The notes: generated by a model not told the origin, from the sequence alone. Positions 636-8,503 are shown, counted from the stretch's first letter. The stretch is 9,508 nt of DNA from an archaeon (GCA_035387745.1 DAOOON010000023.1:1-9508); one strand, 5' to 3'. Numbers and translations: made by a program.

Positions 636-1940
636 ATGGAAAAAAAATATTTAAGTGTTAAAGGGGTTTTAGAAAGTAAAACAGAAGATATATCTATTCG
701 AGGATGGGTATATAGAATTAGAGATCAAAAAGATAATATCTTTGTAACAATTAGAGATGAAACCGGAATTATACAGCTTGTTGCTTCAAAAGACAAGTTA
801 AAACCAGAAGAGTTTCAAACAGCAAAAGCATTAGGAATAGAATCTTCAATAATAGTTCATGGAAAACTAAGAAAAGAAGAAAGGTCTCCTCAAGGTTATG
901 AAGTTGATATTGATTCAATAGAGCTTGTTGGAAAATCAGAGAACTATCCAATCTCTAAAGACTTCTCTGAGGAGTTTCTTCTAGATGTTAGACATCTCTG
1001 GCTTAGAAGTAGAAAAATGACAAGCATCCTAAAGATAAGATCAACAGTAATTGGAGCGATTCATGAATATTTTAGAAAAGAAGGATTCTATGAATATCAA
1101 TCACCAATACTTCAATCAGTCCAATGCGAAGGAGGTTCTTCTCTTTTTAAAGTTGATTACTTTGGAGAAGAAGGAGTTTTCTTAGCTCAGACCTGGCAAC
1201 TATATGCTGAGCCAGCAATCTTTTCTTTAGGAAAGATTTATACCATTGCTCCATCTTTTAGAGCAGAGAAATCAAAGACCTCAAGACACCTTACAGAATA
1301 CTGGCATGCAGAGATGGAAGGGGTTTGGATTGATTTTGAAATGCTTCAAGATTATGGTGAAGGGCTAATCAAACATGTAATCAAAACAGTACTTTCAAAA
1401 CATAAAGAAGATCTTGATATCCTTAAAAGAGACACAAAGTTATTAGAAACAGCAATCTCTAAACCATTCATAAGAATGACATATACTGAAGTTCTAAAAC
1501 TTCTTAAAGAAAAAGCAGATATGGAAGTTGAATGGGGAAAAGATCTAAGAACAATTGAGGAAGACAAGTTAAGTAAAATGCACGATACCTTTACAATAGT
1601 TACAAGATATCCAAAAGTTGTTAAGGCCTTTTACATGAAAGAAGACCCAAAAGACTCAAGTGTCGTTCTTGGCTTTGATTGTATTGGCCCAGAAGGTTAT
1701 GGAGAAATTATTGGTGCAAGTGAAAGAGAGCCAGACTTAGAAAAGATAAAGCAAAGATTACTAGATGATGGCGAAGACCCAAAGCATTATGAGTTTTATC
1801 TAGACACTAGAAGATATGGTTCAGTTCCACATGCAGGCTTTGGTTTAGGTGTTGAAAGATTAATTGCATACATTACTGGTGTTGACAACATAAAAGACAC
1901 AATACCATTTCCAAGAACTATGGTTCGTTTCAAACCGTAG
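636..1940 (+). CDS. asnS: Asparaginyl-tRNA synthetase (class IIb, short archaeal-type, 434 aa)
   Basis: An N-terminal OB-fold-like segment (IRGWVYRIRDQKDNIFVTIRDETG) is present. Class II motif 2 reads FRAEKSKTSRHLTEYWHAEME. Motif 3 and the C-terminus read GSVPHAGFGLGVERLIAYITGVDNIKDTIPFPRT. The PH(A/S)GFGLG and FPRT signatures match AsnRS rather than archaeal AspRS (PHGGxGLG), as I recall them. Confidence 0.88.
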   Translation: MEKKYLSVKGVLESKTEDISIRGWVYRIRDQKDNIFVTIRDETGIIQLVASKDKLKPEEFQTAKALGIESSIIVHGKLRKEERSPQGYEVDIDSIELVGKSENYPISKDFSEEFLLDVRHLWLRSRKMTSILKIRSTVIGAIHEYFRKEGFYEYQSPILQSVQCEGGSSLFKVDYFGEEGVFLAQTWQLYAEPAIFSLGKIYTIAPSFRAEKSKTSRHLTEYWHAEMEGVWIDFEMLQDYGEGLIKHVIKTVLSKHKEDLDILKRDTKLLETAISKPFIRMTYTEVLKLLKEKADMEVEWGKDLRTIEEDKLSKMHDTFTIVTRYPKVVKAFYMKEDPKDSSVVLGFDCIGPEGYGEIIGASEREPDLEKIKQRLLDDGEDPKHYEFYLDTRRYGSVPHAGFGLGVERLIAYITGVDNIKDTIPFPRTMVRFKP

Positions 1941-1950
1941 ATAAAAATAT

Positions 1951-2069
1951 AATTGGTTCGCGTTGATAATCGTGCATAAGCACGAAATCCATTGCGCACG
2001 AATCCATAAAAACCATTTGGTTTTTAGGGCACCAGAAAATATATTTTCTGGGTGCGAGCGAAACCGATT
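1951..2069 (+). ncRNA. Candidate structured RNA or tRNA-Asn leader/promoter element (unclassified)
   Basis: This is the most GC-rich non-coding stretch in the window. A closing helix pairs 1951-1961 with 2058-2069 (11 bp, one G.U, bulged A2061). Hairpin A is 1970-1975/1980-1985 with loop ataa. A near-tandem repeat gcacgaaatccat (1980-1992) and gcacgaatccat (1996-2007) follows. Hairpin B is 2008-2014/2019-2025. Hairpin C is 2029-2039/2044-2055 (11 bp, bulged G2050). The element ends 2 nt before the tRNA 5' end. Confidence 0.3.
2029..2055 (+). promoter_or_regulatory. Putative tRNA-Asn promoter: palindromic TATA-like core flanked by GC-rich inverted arms
   Basis: The sequence is ggcaccag-aaaatatatttt-ctgggtgc. 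The AT core is centred near 2041-2042, about 26-30 nt upstream of the tRNA 5' end at 2072. That is the usual archaeal spacing from TATA box to start site with a very short leader. Confidence 0.4.
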
Positions 2070-2071
2070 CT

Positions 2072-2144
2072 GCCTCAGTAGCTCAGTGGTTGGAGCAATC
2101 GACTGTTAATCGATAGGTCGTAGGTTCAAATCCTACCTGGGGCG
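2072..2144 (+). tRNA. tRNA-Asn (anticodon GTT), 73 nt, no encoded CCA, no intron
   Basis: Manual cloverleaf. Acceptor stem is gcctcag (2072-2078) with ctggggc (2137-2143), one U.G, and discriminator G2144. The D arm is gctc/gagc. The anticodon stem is atcga (2098-2102) with tcgat (2110-2114), and the loop is ctGTTaa with anticodon at 2105-2107. The variable loop is aggtc. The T arm is gtagg-ttcaaat-cctac (2120-2136). Confidence 0.93.
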
Positions 2145-2166
2145 TTTAAAAGGAGATGAATAACTT

Positions 2167-2193
2167 ATGAAAAAGTATCTACCCAACATATAA
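2167..2193 (+). promoter_or_regulatory. 8-codon upstream ORF (MKKYLPNI-stop) with a strong SD, ending 7 nt before the asnA TTG start
   Basis: aaaaggagatgaa (2148-2160) is identical to the SD context of the ORF at 74, with the same 15-nt GGAG-to-ATG spacing. The ATG is at 2167 and the TAA at 2191-2193. Codon 7 is AAC (Asn). The reading frame differs from that of asnA. Confidence 0.35.
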
Positions 2194-2200
2194 ATCGAAA

Positions 2201-3190
2201 TTGGATTATTTTCAAACACAAGAAGCAATTCAATTTATAAAAACTGATTTTGAAAAAAACTTATCAAAAAAACTAAACCTTTTGCGTGTAAGCGCACCGA
2301 AATTTTTAATTGCAAACACTGGGCTGCTTGATGATCTTGCGGGAACTCAAAAACCTGTTTCTTTTAAAGTTAAATTTTTAAAAGAAGATATAGAAATTGT
2401 ACATTCTCTTGCAAAATGGAAAAGATTAATACTTGGAGAATTTAAATTTCCAATAGGTGTGGGACTATATACAGATATGGACGCCATAAGAAAAGATGAA
2501 GATGTTGATTCCACACATAGTGTTTATGTTGATCAATGGGACTGGGAAAAAGTAATTACAAAAGAACAAAGAAATATAAAATTCTTAAAAAAAATAGTAA
2601 AACAAATTTATTCAAGCATGTATAAAACAAAATTAAAGTTAAATAAAAAATATAAACAATTAGAATATACAATTCCAAAAGATATACATTTTATACATTC
2701 AGTAGATTTACAAAAGTTATATCCGAAACTAACCCCAAAAGAAAGAGAAGACAAGATTACAGAACAACATGGTGCAGTTTTTATTATTGGTATTGGTGCA
2801 GATTTATCTGACAATAAGCCACACGATATAAGAGCAACTGACTATGATGATTGGTCAACAATAGAAAACGGAAAACCAGGATTAAACGGAGACATTTTAG
2901 TTTGGGATAAAGTTAGTGGTAAAGCATTAGAGTTATCCTCTATGGGAATAAGAGTTGATAAAGATGCATTATTGTTTCAACTAAAAGAAAAGAATGAAAT
3001 ACACAAGTTGAAATTGGATTATCACAAAAAGATTATTTCAAATAAAATCCCTCTTTCAATTGGTGGTGGTATCGGGCAATCAAGACTTTCTATGTTTATA
3101 TTAGAGAAAGCACACATTGGAGAAGTTCAATCCTGTGTTTGGCCTAAAGGCTTAATAACTAAATTTAAAAATAAAGGGGTTATTTTATAA
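2201..3190 (+). CDS. asnA: Aspartate-ammonia ligase (asparagine synthetase A, AsnA type), 329 aa, TTG start
   Basis: Collinear with E. coli AsnA as I remember it. Shared motifs are VHSLAKWKR, HSVYVDQWDWE, IHFIHS, GAVFIIGIG, HDIRATDYDDWST, GLNGDILVW, ELSSMGIRVD, IGGGIGQSRL and HIGEVQ..VWP. The first canonical start in frame is TTG at 2201. Starting there, the N-terminus (MDYFQTQEAIQFIK) aligns with E. coli residues about 3-16. Confidence 0.9.
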   Translation: MDYFQTQEAIQFIKTDFEKNLSKKLNLLRVSAPKFLIANTGLLDDLAGTQKPVSFKVKFLKEDIEIVHSLAKWKRLILGEFKFPIGVGLYTDMDAIRKDEDVDSTHSVYVDQWDWEKVITKEQRNIKFLKKIVKQIYSSMYKTKLKLNKKYKQLEYTIPKDIHFIHSVDLQKLYPKLTPKEREDKITEQHGAVFIIGIGADLSDNKPHDIRATDYDDWSTIENGKPGLNGDILVWDKVSGKALELSSMGIRVDKDALLFQLKEKNEIHKLKLDYHKKIISNKIPLSIGGGIGQSRLSMFILEKAHIGEVQSCVWPKGLITKFKNKGVIL

Positions 3191-3254
3191 TTTGAATTTC
3201 TTTTTAAATTTATAGGTTTATAATATTATTATAAAAACTAAAAAAGGTGATAAT

Positions 3255-3740
3255 ATGCCAGCAATTGCAGCAAGAAAACCGATTTCCAGAAAACCAATGG
3301 AAATTAAGAATTCAATTTTAAGACAAAGAGAATTAGCAAAAGTGTCTACAAAAAAAAGAGAATTAAAAAGAGAAAACTTATCAAAAGAAATTTCAGAATT
3401 TGATAAAAAAGTTAATAGACTTCCAGAAAACAAAAGACCTATTGTACAAAAGCAGCTTTTAAGAAAACTAGAAGCAAGGCACAATTATATTCAAGCAAAT
3501 ATTGAAAAAATAAGTCAAAATCTACACAGGTATAAATTTAATGAAAAGAATATAACGTTTTTAGAAACCCTAAGAAAACAAGAAGTAAAAAGAACAAACA
3601 ATAACCAATATCAAATGTGGGATTACGCAGAGCAGAAACTAAAAGCGGGATATAAGCCAATAGAACTTTTAAAAGCAGGATATAATGTAGGAGAAGTAAC
3701 TGCTGGAGTTTTTAGACTAGAAACAAAAAGAAAAGCATGA
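3255..3740 (+). CDS. Hypothetical, very basic, probably coiled-coil protein (161 aa) with a C-terminal LKAGY decapeptide repeat
   Basis: SD ggtga at 3246-3250 and ATG at 3255. A TATA-like ctttttaaatttata lies at 3200-3214. The protein is rich in K, R and E. DNA repeats aaaagcgggatataa (3641-3655) and aaaagcaggatataa (3671-3685) lie 30 nt apart and encode LKAGYKPIEL/LKAGYNVGEV. I recognise no family. Confidence 0.6.
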   Translation: MPAIAARKPISRKPMEIKNSILRQRELAKVSTKKRELKRENLSKEISEFDKKVNRLPENKRPIVQKQLLRKLEARHNYIQANIEKISQNLHRYKFNEKNITFLETLRKQEVKRTNNNQYQMWDYAEQKLKAGYKPIELLKAGYNVGEVTAGVFRLETKRKA

Positions 3741-4048
3741 ACAAAGCAATATGTTATTCCAATCTGACACTAAGTCACAAGAAACACCCATTACAGTTTA
3801 CTGTTGGTATTGGTTTTCAAGGTAAACTAATAAATGGCAGAGTTAAAGGCATTGATCTAAACAAAGAAAGAAAAACTCTAGAAGACTTTAATGCAAAGAT
3901 TAGAGATAAAGAATTATTTGTTTTGATTAAAGGCTATAAGGGCATGGAATCTCTTGCTAATTTTTATTTTAAGGAATTAAAAAATAAAAAAATAGATTTT
4001 ATAATTATTAAAGAAAGCAACACAGAAGAAATAATAATTGAAAAATAA
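3737..4048 (+). CDS. Hypothetical protein (103 aa), translationally coupled to the upstream ORF
   Basis: ATGA start/stop overlap at 3737-3740. No recognisable motif. Confidence 0.5.
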   Translation: MNKAICYSNLTLSHKKHPLQFTVGIGFQGKLINGRVKGIDLNKERKTLEDFNAKIRDKELFVLIKGYKGMESLANFYFKELKNKKIDFIIIKESNTEEIIIEK

Positions 4049-4050
4049 AC

Positions 4051-4090
4051 GTATTACAAAAAGCGACTATTTTTAAACATTTTGTAATAC
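4051..4090. promoter_or_regulatory. Perfect 11-bp inverted repeat bracketing a TATA-like box: putative operator/promoter of the PIN-antitoxin operon
   Basis: gtattacaaaa (4051-4061) and ttttgtaatac (4080-4090) are perfect reverse complements. The 18-nt spacer agcgactatttttaaaca contains ctatttttaaac (4067-4078). The box centre is about 26 nt upstream of ATG 4100 and there is no SD, which suggests a leaderless mRNA. The element could alternatively act as a hairpin terminator for the 3255-4048 unit. Confidence 0.45.
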
Positions 4091-4099
4091 ATTATATTT

Positions 4100-4600
4100 A
4101 TGGTTAAACTAAAAGCAGTAGTTGATTCTTCATTTTGGATTAATCTTAATAAAACAGATTTAGTCAAATATTTATTTGATTATTTCGATTTGTATTTTAC
4201 AGAGAAAGTAGAAGATGAGCTTTATGATTATAAAGACACAAGAGCAAGTGTTCCAAAAGATCTAGATTCTTTTATACAATTAAAAAAATTAGATTTTGTA
4301 CAAGTAAAAAACCCTAAAACCGTTTCAAAAAAACTTTTTGATACTCTTTCCAACTACTCCGGAGAAATATATACAATAGCATTAGCCGAAGAATTGAATG
4401 CAATAGTTTTAACAGACGATTCTGGGCCATTAAAATATTGTAATAGGTACGGAATTATATCAATAACAACTCCCACATTTATTTTAAAACTTTTTAAAGA
4501 TAGAATAATTACAAAAGAAATAGCAAAGCAGAAGATTAATTTGATAAAGAAAAGCATAAGAAAAGAAATAATAGGAGAGGCATTAAAACAATTAAAATAG
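4100..4600 (+). CDS. PIN-domain protein (DUF3368/COG2405-like), putative toxin ribonuclease, 166 aa
   Basis: Acidic residues sit in a PIN-like pattern: D9 (VVDSSFW), E38-D39-E40 (VEDEL), E89 (SGEIYTIALAEE) and D106-D107 (VLTDD). The C-terminal helical segment (YGIISITTPTFILKLFKDRIIT) is typical of the DUF3368 type, as I recall it. A UPF0175-like partner is adjacent. Confidence 0.72.
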   Translation: MVKLKAVVDSSFWINLNKTDLVKYLFDYFDLYFTEKVEDELYDYKDTRASVPKDLDSFIQLKKLDFVQVKNPKTVSKKLFDTLSNYSGEIYTIALAEELNAIVLTDDSGPLKYCNRYGIISITTPTFILKLFKDRIITKEIAKQKINLIKKSIRKEIIGEALKQLK

Positions 4601-4608
4601 GTGAAAAA

Positions 4609-4959
4609 ATGAAAAAATATAATGTTAAGAAAGTAAAATCTTTTAGATTATCAGATAATGCATTAGCATCTATAAGCTATATTTCAAAAGCAGAAAACAT
4701 TAATGAATCAGAAGTGACAAGGATTGTTATTGATAAAGGAATTAAAGAATATCTTTTTGAATCAGCAGTTAACGAATACAATACAAAGAAGATCTGTTTA
4801 AGTGAAGCAGCAAAGATTGCAGGACTTTCAAAAAGAGACTTTATGAAAGAACTAGAAAAAAGAGGAATTCCATTAAATATGGATCTGGAAGATTTTAGAT
4901 ATTCATTTGAAAGTATGGAAAGGATATTAAAAAAAATTGATGGAAAAAGTAAGAAATAA
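4609..4959 (+). CDS. Putative antitoxin: UPF0175/COG2886-like HTH domain with an N-terminal ribbon-helix-helix-like segment, 116 aa
   Basis: The C-terminal half (LSEAAKIAGLSKRDFMKELEKRGIPLNMDLEDF) matches the UPF0175 pattern of an HTH followed by GIP. Residues about 9-47 (VKSFRLSDNALASISYISKAENINESEVTRIVIDKGIKEY) have a CopG/RHH-like strand-helix-helix pattern. SD ggtga (4600-4604) overlaps the PIN stop codon. Confidence 0.68.
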   Translation: MKKYNVKKVKSFRLSDNALASISYISKAENINESEVTRIVIDKGIKEYLFESAVNEYNTKKICLSEAAKIAGLSKRDFMKELEKRGIPLNMDLEDFRYSFESMERILKKIDGKSKK

Positions 4960-7495: not shown

Positions 7496-8503
7496 ATGGA
7501 AAACAAAGATTTAGTTTATTATTTTTTTAAAAAAAAACTAAATGAAAATAAATATAATTTAAAATATGGTACAAAACCTGATCTTTTTTTTAACTTGGAT
7601 ATAGATTCTGCAAAACCTTATTTATCAAAAGTAGATATAAAAGAACAAAAAGAAATTGTTCGAATTATTGAAAACTTTAATATTACTCAGCTTTCTTCGG
7701 TTTTAGAAAATATTAGATATAATCTAGAGCACAAACGAGAATTTAATAGTTTTTTAAGAGACACAAGAGATATACAAAAAGGCAGATTTCTTAAAAAGCC
7801 AAGAGCAAGAGTAGATTCGCCAGTTTGTATAGACACTTATATTGGATTTATGAGGGCACTAAAGGAAGGCACACTATATACTGCAAAACTAAAGATTGAT
7901 GGCAAATTAAAAAGAGTATTTATTAAAACGCCAATAGGAAATGCAAACGACTTAAATTTAGATTTTGGATTTTCAAGACTTGCAATCGATCCTGAGACTC
8001 TAAATGTTTATTCTTTTATAAATAATAGAGCTGGCAGAATAAATGAAACAAAAATAAAGAAGGTTTTTTCTAAAACAGATTTAGACCGCTTGGCTTTAGA
8101 ATATGAAAATCAAAAAACGGCAGGTATTGCTAGAGAAAGTTATTTAAATTTTAGAAAAGAGCTTTTAGAGAAAATGGATGCAGTATATGGTATTGAAAGA
8201 ATTATTGATACCTATTTAAGAATGGGCGGCAAAATCGACTCTCAAAAATACAAGAACAAAGACTTTAAAGAAGAACTAATAAGGCATCTTGAAGAAAGAT
8301 TTGGAACTGAAAAATTATTAAATTGGGTCTCAAAAATCAAAAATCCAAAAGAAGCAGCAAAATTAAAGCTTGAAATATTAGAAAGCCTAGGAAAATATCA
8401 TGGACAAGAATATAGAGCACATTATAGCGCAGAATACAATCGCGCAAAACATCAAAAAATCCAAAAATTAAGACCAAAAAAGGCTATAAAACGCCTCATC
8501 TAA
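7496..8503 (+). CDS. Hypothetical lysine-rich protein (335 aa), translationally coupled to kae1
   Basis: SD ggtga (7487-7491) contains the kae1 TGA stop, and the ATG follows at 7496. It is a long ORF with coding-like composition, a helical K/E-rich C-terminal half and a basic tail. I recognise no family, and it is not a Bud32-type kinase. Confidence 0.6.
   Translation: MENKDLVYYFFKKKLNENKYNLKYGTKPDLFFNLDIDSAKPYLSKVDIKEQKEIVRIIENFNITQLSSVLENIRYNLEHKREFNSFLRDTRDIQKGRFLKKPRARVDSPVCIDTYIGFMRALKEGTLYTAKLKIDGKLKRVFIKTPIGNANDLNLDFGFSRLAIDPETLNVYSFINNRAGRINETKIKKVFSKTDLDRLALEYENQKTAGIARESYLNFRKELLEKMDAVYGIERIIDTYLRMGGKIDSQKYKNKDFKEELIRHLEERFGTEKLLNWVSKIKNPKEAAKLKLEILESLGKYHGQEYRAHYSAEYNRAKHQKIQKLRPKKAIKRLI

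Follow-up and report, generated by a model that had tools for sequence, protein, structure and literature searches.

The stretch of DNA analyzed here, 9,508 nucleotides (nt) from an archaeon (GCA_035387745.1, DAOOON010000023.1:1-9508; hereafter the window), carries on its plus strand the genes for asparaginyl-tRNA synthetase (AsnRS, asnS), tRNA-Asn(GUU), and aspartate-ammonia ligase (AsnA, asnA). The most interesting feature of this locus, overlooked in the first reading of the sequence, is a frame offset at the start of asnA: the ATG led by the ribosome-binding site (RBS) opens an open reading frame (ORF) of only eight codons, and AsnA is encoded in the +1 frame. We interpret the locus as a clade-specific asparagine module in which asnA may be transcribed through the tRNA gene and a +1 ribosomal frameshift at CCC_AAC may sense Asn-tRNA, a reading to which we give a probability of about 0.5.

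Frame break at the start of asnA

AsnRS (434 aa, stop TAG; 636-1940) was identified from the ORF list with Pfam and NCBIfam. It exceeded the cut-offs of NF003037 (482 bits; cut-off 414) and TIGR00457 (424 bits; cut-off 343), and Pfam recognized a class IIb core (tRNA-synt_2, PF00152) and an OB anticodon domain (PF01336). The tRNA-Asn gene was placed at 2072-2144 by Rfam (RF00005, 74 bits; cut-off 29) and at 2071-2145 by ARAGORN (anticodon gtt); it forms a single-exon cloverleaf with anticodon GUU and G2144 as the discriminator G73, and CCA is not encoded. The ORF running from TTG 2201 to 3190 is AsnA, with a match to PF03590 (5e-97) and, over the full domain, to TIGR00669 (376 bits; cut-off 292.8). 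It aligned with the solved structures 9v83 (4e-106) and 11AS/12AS (5e-89), including the motifs HSVYVDQWDWE and GGGIGQSRL, with the catalytic motifs intact, and it is of the bacterial type. A Shine-Dalgarno (SD) site, GGAGATGA (2152-2159), recognized by comparison with other SD sites of the genome and by its conservation, lies 7 nt before ATG 2167. The earlier note had placed asnS, tRNA-Asn, the SD, and asnA at these positions on the plus strand, and ORF calling, hidden Markov models, Rfam, and ARAGORN confirmed them; it had also taken ATG 2167 and the ORF from 2201 as one gene, which does not hold, the two being in different frames and offset by 34 nt.

ATG 2167 lies 22 nt past the 3' end of the tRNA and is out of frame with asnA (2201-2167 = 34 = 3x11+1). 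Its zero-frame leader ORF, ATG AAA AAG TAT CTA CCC AAC ATA TAA (2167-2193; MKKYLPNI), which opens at what we take to be the true AsnA start, ends after 8 codons at TAA 2191-2193. The +1 frame, which carries the asnA coding sequence identified with Pfam and NCBIfam (2186-3190; stop TAA, 3188-3190), is closed upstream by TGA 2168-2170. TTG 2201 is an internal Leu codon without an SD; the codon is TTG in the window and in the related loci L180, L181, and L188, TTA in L176 and L187, and CTA in L178. No in-frame ATG, GTG, or TTG precedes the conserved YKSKLD in L176, L187, or L178, and no uninterrupted ORF with a canonical start covers the AsnA N-terminal helix. Public annotations disagree about the start, choosing variously TTG, a downstream TTG (302 aa), ATC/ATT, TGA as Trp, or TAG as Gln.

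The four codons before 2201 (TAT AAA TCN AAA; YKSK from 2189) vary only synonymously (TCG/TCT/TCA). Over the first 31 codons from 2189, the window differs from L180 by 6 synonymous and 0 nonsynonymous changes (nonsynonymous rate, dN, 0.0; synonymous rate, dS, 0.49) and from L176 by 7 synonymous and 3 nonsynonymous changes (dN 0.04, dS 0.79); within the subclade, dN for these N-terminal codons was 0-0.05 versus a dS of 0.13-0.79. YKSKLD aligns to residues 9 onward of 9v83. Among 39 in-frame AsnA proteins from DPANN archaea, the N-terminal consensus is MK(K/Q/E)-ILP-x-D-YK-(P/S)-KLDFF; the window residues fit it, and its opening corresponds to the MKK of the ATG 2167 ORF. For the whole of asnA, dN/dS was 0.07-0.19 at dS 0.4-1.1 (7 lineages). 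Judged by these substitution patterns, asnA is functional and its frame-offset layout is old. Two other explanations of the break were rejected: genome-wide reassignment of TGA, as 2 of 24 genes terminate at TGA and table 11 leaves the large genes unbroken, and a mini-intron of the bulge-helix-bulge type restoring the frame, as the codons it would remove (TAT AAA TCN AAA) vary synonymously in the +1 frame.

At least 11 assemblies of the window strain share one identical junction, and the layout is retained by 7 distinct junctions drawn from upwards of 15 assemblies. The SD (100% conserved), the spacer, the ATG, and codons 3-4 are invariant in all seven. Codons 2 (AAA/AGA/ATA), 5 (CTA/CAA/GTA), 6 (CCC/GCC), and 7 (AAC/AAT) vary, and leader codons 1-7 are kept as M-(K/R/I)-K-Y-(L/Q/V)-(P/A)-N. 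The conserved 27-mer gave 0 matches in viral contigs. In the asnA frame, a mini-ORF of ATG AAT AAC TTA TGA (2156-2170; MNNL and stop, with two Asn codons) ends in a stop that overlaps ATG 2167 (ATGA). It is 100% conserved in the seven lineages and is probably just the SD plus spacer.

Gene order and transcription of the asparagine locus

Gene order was compared over the 80 closest asnA loci among GTDB species representatives and the 80 closest among metagenome contigs. These 160 loci are nearly all Bacteroidota-like, with AsnA 50-57% identical; none has tRNA-Asn beside asnA, and asnS lies within 5-6 kb in 2 only (L080 and L169). A general asnA-asnS-tRNA synteny was rejected on this count. Every relative with AsnA of at least 75% identity (L176-L181, L187, and L188) has tRNA-Asn directly 5' of asnA, a linkage found in 7 of the 7 distinct related lineages recovered, and asnS lies upstream of the tRNA wherever the contig extends that far (L176 and L180). 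The window, L176, L180, L181, L187, and L188 share one tRNA-Asn sequence without a difference. By this comparison the clustering exceeds chance, because it recurs in all seven lineages yet in none of the 160 other loci, and the synteny check that the earlier note had proposed came out in its favor.

At the other DPANN asnA loci (L182-L186; AsnA 58-62% identity), a divergent AsnC-family gene adjoins asnA, and the AsnA start is in frame. In L185 and L186, asnA is followed after 68 nt by asnS, with no tRNA there, and a metagenome-assembled genome (MAG) of a nanoarchaeote (Nanoarchaeota) shows the arrangement asnC<>asnA-asnS. No ORF in the 9.5-kb window matched HTH_AsnC or AsnC_trans_reg, and the relatives' loci held no AsnC-family gene. 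The outgroup L189 (5001-7056; AsnRS 75% identical) carries asnS, a thymidylate-kinase-like (tmk-like) gene, and tRNA-Asn, with no asnA; its tRNA-Asn is followed by T-run terminators and then an unrelated gene, in a neighborhood shared with the window strain (ileS ... asnS ... DUF3368/UPF0175 ... cysS). Because L189 links asnS and tRNA-Asn without asnA, the two appear to have been linked first and asnA attached later; the pattern fits either the later addition of asnA at the tRNA 3' end or its loss in L189.

These loci also bear on two statements of the earlier note. It knew of no standard arrangement of this sort, and a precedent for linkage of the asparagine synthetase gene with asnS exists in the asnC<>asnA-asnS order of the Nanoarchaeota MAG. 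Its proposal of a co-regulated asparagine module is upheld as far as co-orientation and conserved linkage in close relatives go, and it has partial precedents.

Start-signal and codon statistics were taken from 21 kb of the window organism's genome. Leaderless (first) genes there have a TTTAAA-type box from -27 to -30 of the ATG and no SD, and internal-cistron genes have GGAGATGA, GGTGA, or GGAGTGA 5-9 nt before the ATG. ATG 2167, with GGAGATGA and 7 nt, shares the 8-mer and its spacing with two other genes of the genome. The tRNA-SD gap is 7, 13, or 33 nt across lineages. The SD starts 7 nt after the tRNA in the window, so that no promoter-like spacing precedes asnA, and a transcript that includes the SD must begin inside or 5' of the tRNA. 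The trailer varies among lineages in sequence and length; in the window it is the A/T-rich TTTAAAA (2145-2151), which may be either a TATA-like box or an RNase Z trailer with which the asnA mRNA begins. A scan for T runs of at least four found none between tRNA and asnA in any lineage and none between asnS and asnA in L176 or L180; past the asnA stop it found a T5 run (3201-3205), likely an archaeal terminator signal. We infer a tRNA-asnA co-transcript as the most economical and most likely model, favored because of the internal-cistron SD, the short tRNA-SD gap, and the absence of a T-run terminator. Rfam at E <= 1 returned the tRNA only, with no riboswitch, T-box, or known leader. A scan for bacterial sigma-70 promoters and intrinsic terminators was uninformative (47 sites versus 44.8 expected; the host is archaeal).

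The alternative is that asnA has its own promoter in the A/T box after the tRNA and that the gene order reflects insertion of asnA at a tRNA gene and not co-regulation. The co-transcript model has to contend with an A/T-rich, TATA-like box that follows the tRNA in every lineage and that in five of them starts about 26 nt before ATG 2167, compatible with a leaderless transcript (-27 to -30 in the leaderless genes); the outgroup L189, with its tRNA-Asn and no asnA, is likewise consistent with insertion next to the tRNA. However, the distance from box to ATG is inconstant, at 22 nt in the window and 26 or 46 nt elsewhere (46 in L178), a leaderless transcript would leave out the perfectly conserved SD, and no terminator T run lies past the tRNA, unlike in L189. 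An own promoter is therefore a minority possibility that we consider unlikely without dismissing it. The earlier note's claim of transcription through the tRNA thus keeps the support of the SD type, the 7-33 nt gap, and the missing T run, and is qualified by the box present in every lineage.

Between asnS and the tRNA lies a spacer of 131 nt (1941-2071), delimited by folding and comparison of variants. A conserved ATAAAAATATAA box opens it (1941-1952), and a GC-rich multi-hairpin structure occupies about 1951-2069. The window spacer folds at -43.9 kcal/mol with z = -5.3, and the z values of L180, L176, and L005 are -2.2, -2.9, and -6.0; there was no Rfam match. The spacer is 80 nt long in L176 (5706-5786) and L180 (1536-1616), 51 nt shorter than in the window, and 250 nt in L005 (1465-1714), 119 nt longer, the strains differing by gain or loss of whole A/T-looped hairpins. 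The window-specific 51-nt insert carries a T5 run (at 2021) together with, about 28 nt before the tRNA, a TATA-like loop (2036-2047). The spacer could act as an insulator or a terminator-promoter cassette, or belong to the pre-tRNA as its leader.

In several samples the Logan contigs are broken at two shared points within the tRNA gene, with L007 ending at window position 2098 and L010-L015 starting at 2115. These breaks fit an identical tRNA (about 2069-2145) in more than one flanking context, as in co-occurring strains of, for example, the L005 and L180 types, and need not imply a second tRNA-Asn copy.

Candidate shift site and alternative starts

The absence of a canonical in-frame start, together with the selection on the codons ahead of TTG 2201, suggests that asnA probably needs translational recoding. 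The junction shares with the +1 frameshift genes prfB and antizyme a short zero-frame ORF at a genuine RBS, a main product in the +1 frame without a start of its own, conservation under purifying selection, and a P-site codon able to re-pair; a cis stimulator of their type was not found. The +1 frame is closed by TGA at codon 1/2 in all lineages, by TAA at codon 2/3 in L188, and by TAG just before CCA in the L178 type, and the zero frame stops at codon 9 (codon 13 in L178). Because these stops bracket it, a common shift site would lie at codons 6-8. NCC_AAY with the +1 codon CCA is invariant at codons 6-7, and the candidate site in the window, defined by re-pairing and the bracketing stops, is CCC_AAC_A (2182-2188). 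In six lineages +1-frame re-pairing of the P-site tRNA is possible at CCC_A, onto CCA, and nowhere else. The P-site codons are rare, CCC making up 11 of 192 Pro codons (5.7%) and GCC 5.9% of Ala codons. The A-site codon is Asn in 7 of 7 lineages (AAC in six and AAT in one), and exchanging AAC for AAT is silent in frame 0 but changes the residue in +1. The predicted trans-frame products, MKKYLP joined to TYKSKLDYFQ... in the window and MKKYVA joined to IYPEDYKPKLDYYQ... in L178, both fit the family consensus.

We propose the following sequence of events. The asnA mRNA would be freed from the tRNA co-transcript by tRNA 3' processing, and translation would begin at the RBS-led ATG 2167, whose MKK corresponds to the ancestral start of DPANN AsnA. 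Ribosomes staying in frame would end at TAA after 8 codons, and those slipping +1 after six codons would yield full-length AsnA. Slipping would occur as peptidyl-tRNA-Pro, seated on the rare CCC, re-pairs with CCA before the Asn codon AAC in the A site is decoded. With an Asn codon awaiting its tRNA, a shortage of charged tRNA-Asn should make slipping more frequent, which would place asparagine synthesis under feedback control and replace the AsnC regulator that stands beside asnA in other DPANN archaea. Asn-responsive shifting at CCC_AAC is a tentative proposal, and no less tentative is the complete chain, in which a frameshift set off by an Asn codon standing in an unfilled A site would gate AsnA in place of AsnC, on an mRNA cut from a transcript that carries the sensed tRNA itself and probably the synthetase.

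Several observations weigh against this proposal. The site in L178 is GCC_AAT, where GCC_A re-pairs at 2 of 3 positions only. The Asn codons AAC and AAT are not rare (4.9% of codons); given the +1-frame constraint, the chance of Asn at the A site is about 0.16 per independent lineage, and its recurrence may be coincidence. Another in-frame CCC_AAT occurs in a neighboring 99-aa ORF. No SD-like stimulator of the prfB type lies 3 nt upstream, where the sequence is AAAAAGTATCTA, and no significant downstream structure was found, the junction folds giving z = -1.1, -0.4, and +0.3. The 27-nt start block is also only modestly better conserved than other intergenic regions near starts (84-89%, window versus L176). 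To these are added the other starts and shift sites considered below.

A model without frameshifting would make the 8-codon ORF a leader peptide and produce AsnA by reinitiation at TTG 2201, giving a product with MDYFQTQEAIQFIK, or at the near-cognate ATC/ATT (2177). TTG 2201 is the first table-11 start in frame, 8 nt after the leader stop, and four of the loci have TTG there (the window, L180, L181, and L188). All lineages have an ATY codon, which NCBI PGAP took as the start in two MAGs (P0258, MNPTYK; P0265, MYPEDY). Non-canonical initiation is thus possible for some lineages. However, it fails to explain all of them: TTG 2201 has no SD and is replaced by TTA (L176, L187) or CTA (L178), and purifying selection nevertheless acts on the codons upstream. 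ATC 2177 lies 17 nt and the L178 ATT 26 nt from the SD, versus the genome's usual 5-9 nt, and the L178 codon homologous to ATC is ATG, with TAG directly after it. We regard separate initiation as an unlikely source of AsnA across the clade.

A +1 shift could also take place at the zero-frame stop (ATA_TAA_A; TTA_TAA_A in L178) through slow termination, the mode of prfB or antizyme, in which case it would be constitutive or sense release factor and would not respond to asparagine. The stop is a serious alternative site: (A/T)TA TAA A is found in 7 of 7 lineages, each of which reads AAA in +1 once the T is skipped, and among A-site triggers of +1 shifts stop codons work best (PMC5009743). Against it, the P-site tRNA cannot re-pair there (AUA to UAU, UUA to UAU), and TATAAA is already accounted for by the conserved +1-frame Tyr-Lys codons. 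A shift at the stop would also leave untranslated the +1-frame IYPEDY of L178, a segment that conforms to the family motif (I/L)(L)P(E/K)DY. As an explanation of the whole clade it seems improbable, a little more so than separate initiation.

AsnA might instead start at ATG 2156 inside GGAGATGA, in the asnA frame (MNNL...), with TGA 2168-2170 read through or recoded. This ATG is conserved, TGA seldom serves as a stop (2 of 24 genes), and IMG called one contig of the clade with TGA as Trp (P0263). The variant P0250 (4 Logan contigs) reads MNNLCKSIYPTYK, an ORF unbroken from the ATG inside the SD with Cys in place of the TGA, and weighs against the frameshift model. If its Cys codon is TGC, the zero frame is kept (CAA) and the frameshift model stands; if it is TGT, the zero-frame start has been given up. 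Against a start at ATG 2156, L188 has TGA TAA in tandem and the L178 type (at least 3 assemblies) a further in-frame TAG, the ATG abuts GGAG with no spacer, and TGA ends ileS and another gene while no large gene needs a sense TGA. We consider this start very improbable.

Finally, a decaying pseudogene or a sequencing or assembly artefact, suggested by the A5 run (2170-2174) beside the break, is effectively refuted by the low dN/dS at dS up to 1.1 and the catalytic motifs intact versus 12AS and 9v83, by the recurrence of the junction in independent assemblies, and by L176 (AGAAAG) and L188 (ATAAAG), in which the A run is broken and the frame offset stays.

Genomic setting and comparison with known systems

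The archaeal origin of the window is borne out by its neighboring genes (thermosome, Hjc, Pth2, and Kae1) and by AsnRS relatives at 63-97% identity labeled archaeon, 'Candidatus ainarchaeum', Woesearchaeota, Nanoarchaeota, or DPANN. The source organism is a low-GC DPANN archaeon whose relatives are labeled Iainarchaeota-like. Its AsnRS was found as an identical copy on 7 contigs, and its AsnRS and AsnA proteins recur on NCBI, ENA, JGI, and Logan contigs, including a 93-kb contig of GCA_964645375.1.

Directly 3' of asnA lie ORFs of 161 aa, with its own SD AGGTGAT, and 103 aa, the latter 90% identical in L176 and L180; a 335-aa ORF comes after kae1 with a gap of 4 nt. None of these three conserved ORFs of the window (3255-4048 and 7496-8503) has a Pfam or NCBIfam match. 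A toxin-antitoxin-like pair of genes, PIN_5/DUF3368 (166 aa) and UPF0175 (116 aa), lies at 4100-4959 and occupies the same position in the outgroup L189 (45% and 41% identity). For kae1 and the next ORF, the NCBI assembly (L001, 15843-17868) gives 266/302 aa and the ENA assembly (L002, 15843-17868) 337/335 aa, likely a local assembly or annotation difference. In L189 a tRNA-Ile with the unusual anticodon UAU ('tat'; 783-858) lies just 5' of ileS (1170-4061), and tRNA-Ile(UAU) is near ileS in the window strain too (L001, 3440-3516 and 5102-7954). This is a second cognate tRNA-synthetase adjacency in a region that also holds asnS, cysS, kae1, and pth2.

Hungry-codon frameshifting is mainly known from laboratory work and mobile elements, and regulatory +1 shifts are known for release factor 2 (RF2) and antizyme. 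If the proposed mechanism is true, maintenance of the ribosomal frame would be a direct sensor of a specific aminoacyl-tRNA, the awaited codon specifying the amino acid made by the downstream enzyme, and asnA would be the first natural amino-acid biosynthesis gene under hungry-codon frameshift control. It would also be the first cellular archaeal gene with +1 programmed ribosomal frameshifting (PRF), and +1 recoding would join a very short list of archaeal recoding events; a 2021 review stated that no +1 PRF had been reported in a cellular archaeal gene (PMC8211752). The module would have been assembled stepwise, with asnS and tRNA-Asn first, asnA then added at the tRNA 3' end, and asnC lost. 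The conflicting start annotations show mis-calling in DPANN MAGs, which can distort reconstructions of asparagine auxotrophy.

The locus resembles bacterial prfB, which encodes RF2, and eukaryotic antizyme in having a short zero-frame ORF at a real RBS, an early stop, and a protein in the +1 frame without its own start. In the two known systems a slow A-site event reports the system's own output, RF2 activity or polyamines; at asnA the output so reported would presumably be Asn-tRNA(Asn). Unlike in both, the putative trigger at asnA is a sense Asn codon and not a stop. Unlike prfB, the asnA junction has no SD-like stimulator 3 nt upstream, the shift would come as early as 6 codons into the ORF, and the host is archaeal.

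Known +1 sites have CCC-based P-site codons, or a weak or rare P-site codon with a slow A-site codon, and the slow-codon shifts include Ty1 CUU_AGG_C, Ty3 GCG_AGU_U, and the CCC_UGA/CCC_N of Listeria phages and enterobacteria (PMC5009743). The asnA site shares with these a rare or weakly decoded P-site codon (CCC; GCC in L178, compare Ty3 GCG) and a shift frequency that would be set by the A-site decoding rate, and as at the CCC sites re-pairing from CCC to CCA is possible. It differs in the source of the delay: the slow codons of the known sites are slow from rare tRNA, whereas AAC and AAT are ordinary in this genome, and slowness at asnA would need low charging of tRNA-Asn.

Linkage of the AsnA and AsnRS genes also occurs in Lactobacillus bulgaricus, for which control by tRNA-Asn charging was proposed; Kim, Germond, Pridmore and Soll reportedly described asnA/asnS co-regulation there in 1996 (J Bacteriol 178:2459, as cited in PMC3412718), proposing transcription antitermination in their title. 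That system is bacterial and has no tRNA gene between the two, and the present locus shows no T-box or other Rfam cis-regulator. In Escherichia coli asnA forms a divergent pair with asnC. The enzyme family (PF03590) is the same, as is the need to match AsnA to the asparagine supply, but the window clade has asnS and tRNA-Asn upstream of asnA and no AsnC-family gene at the locus. The thrU-tyrU-glyT-thrT-tufB operon of E. coli is a tRNA-mRNA co-transcript. As in that operon, a tRNA stands immediately 5' of a translation-related gene at the window locus, where the 5' end of the mRNA would putatively come from tRNA 3' processing; unlike in the tufB operon, the tRNA is cognate to both flanking enzymes, and in this archaeal setting RNase Z and CCA addition would apply.

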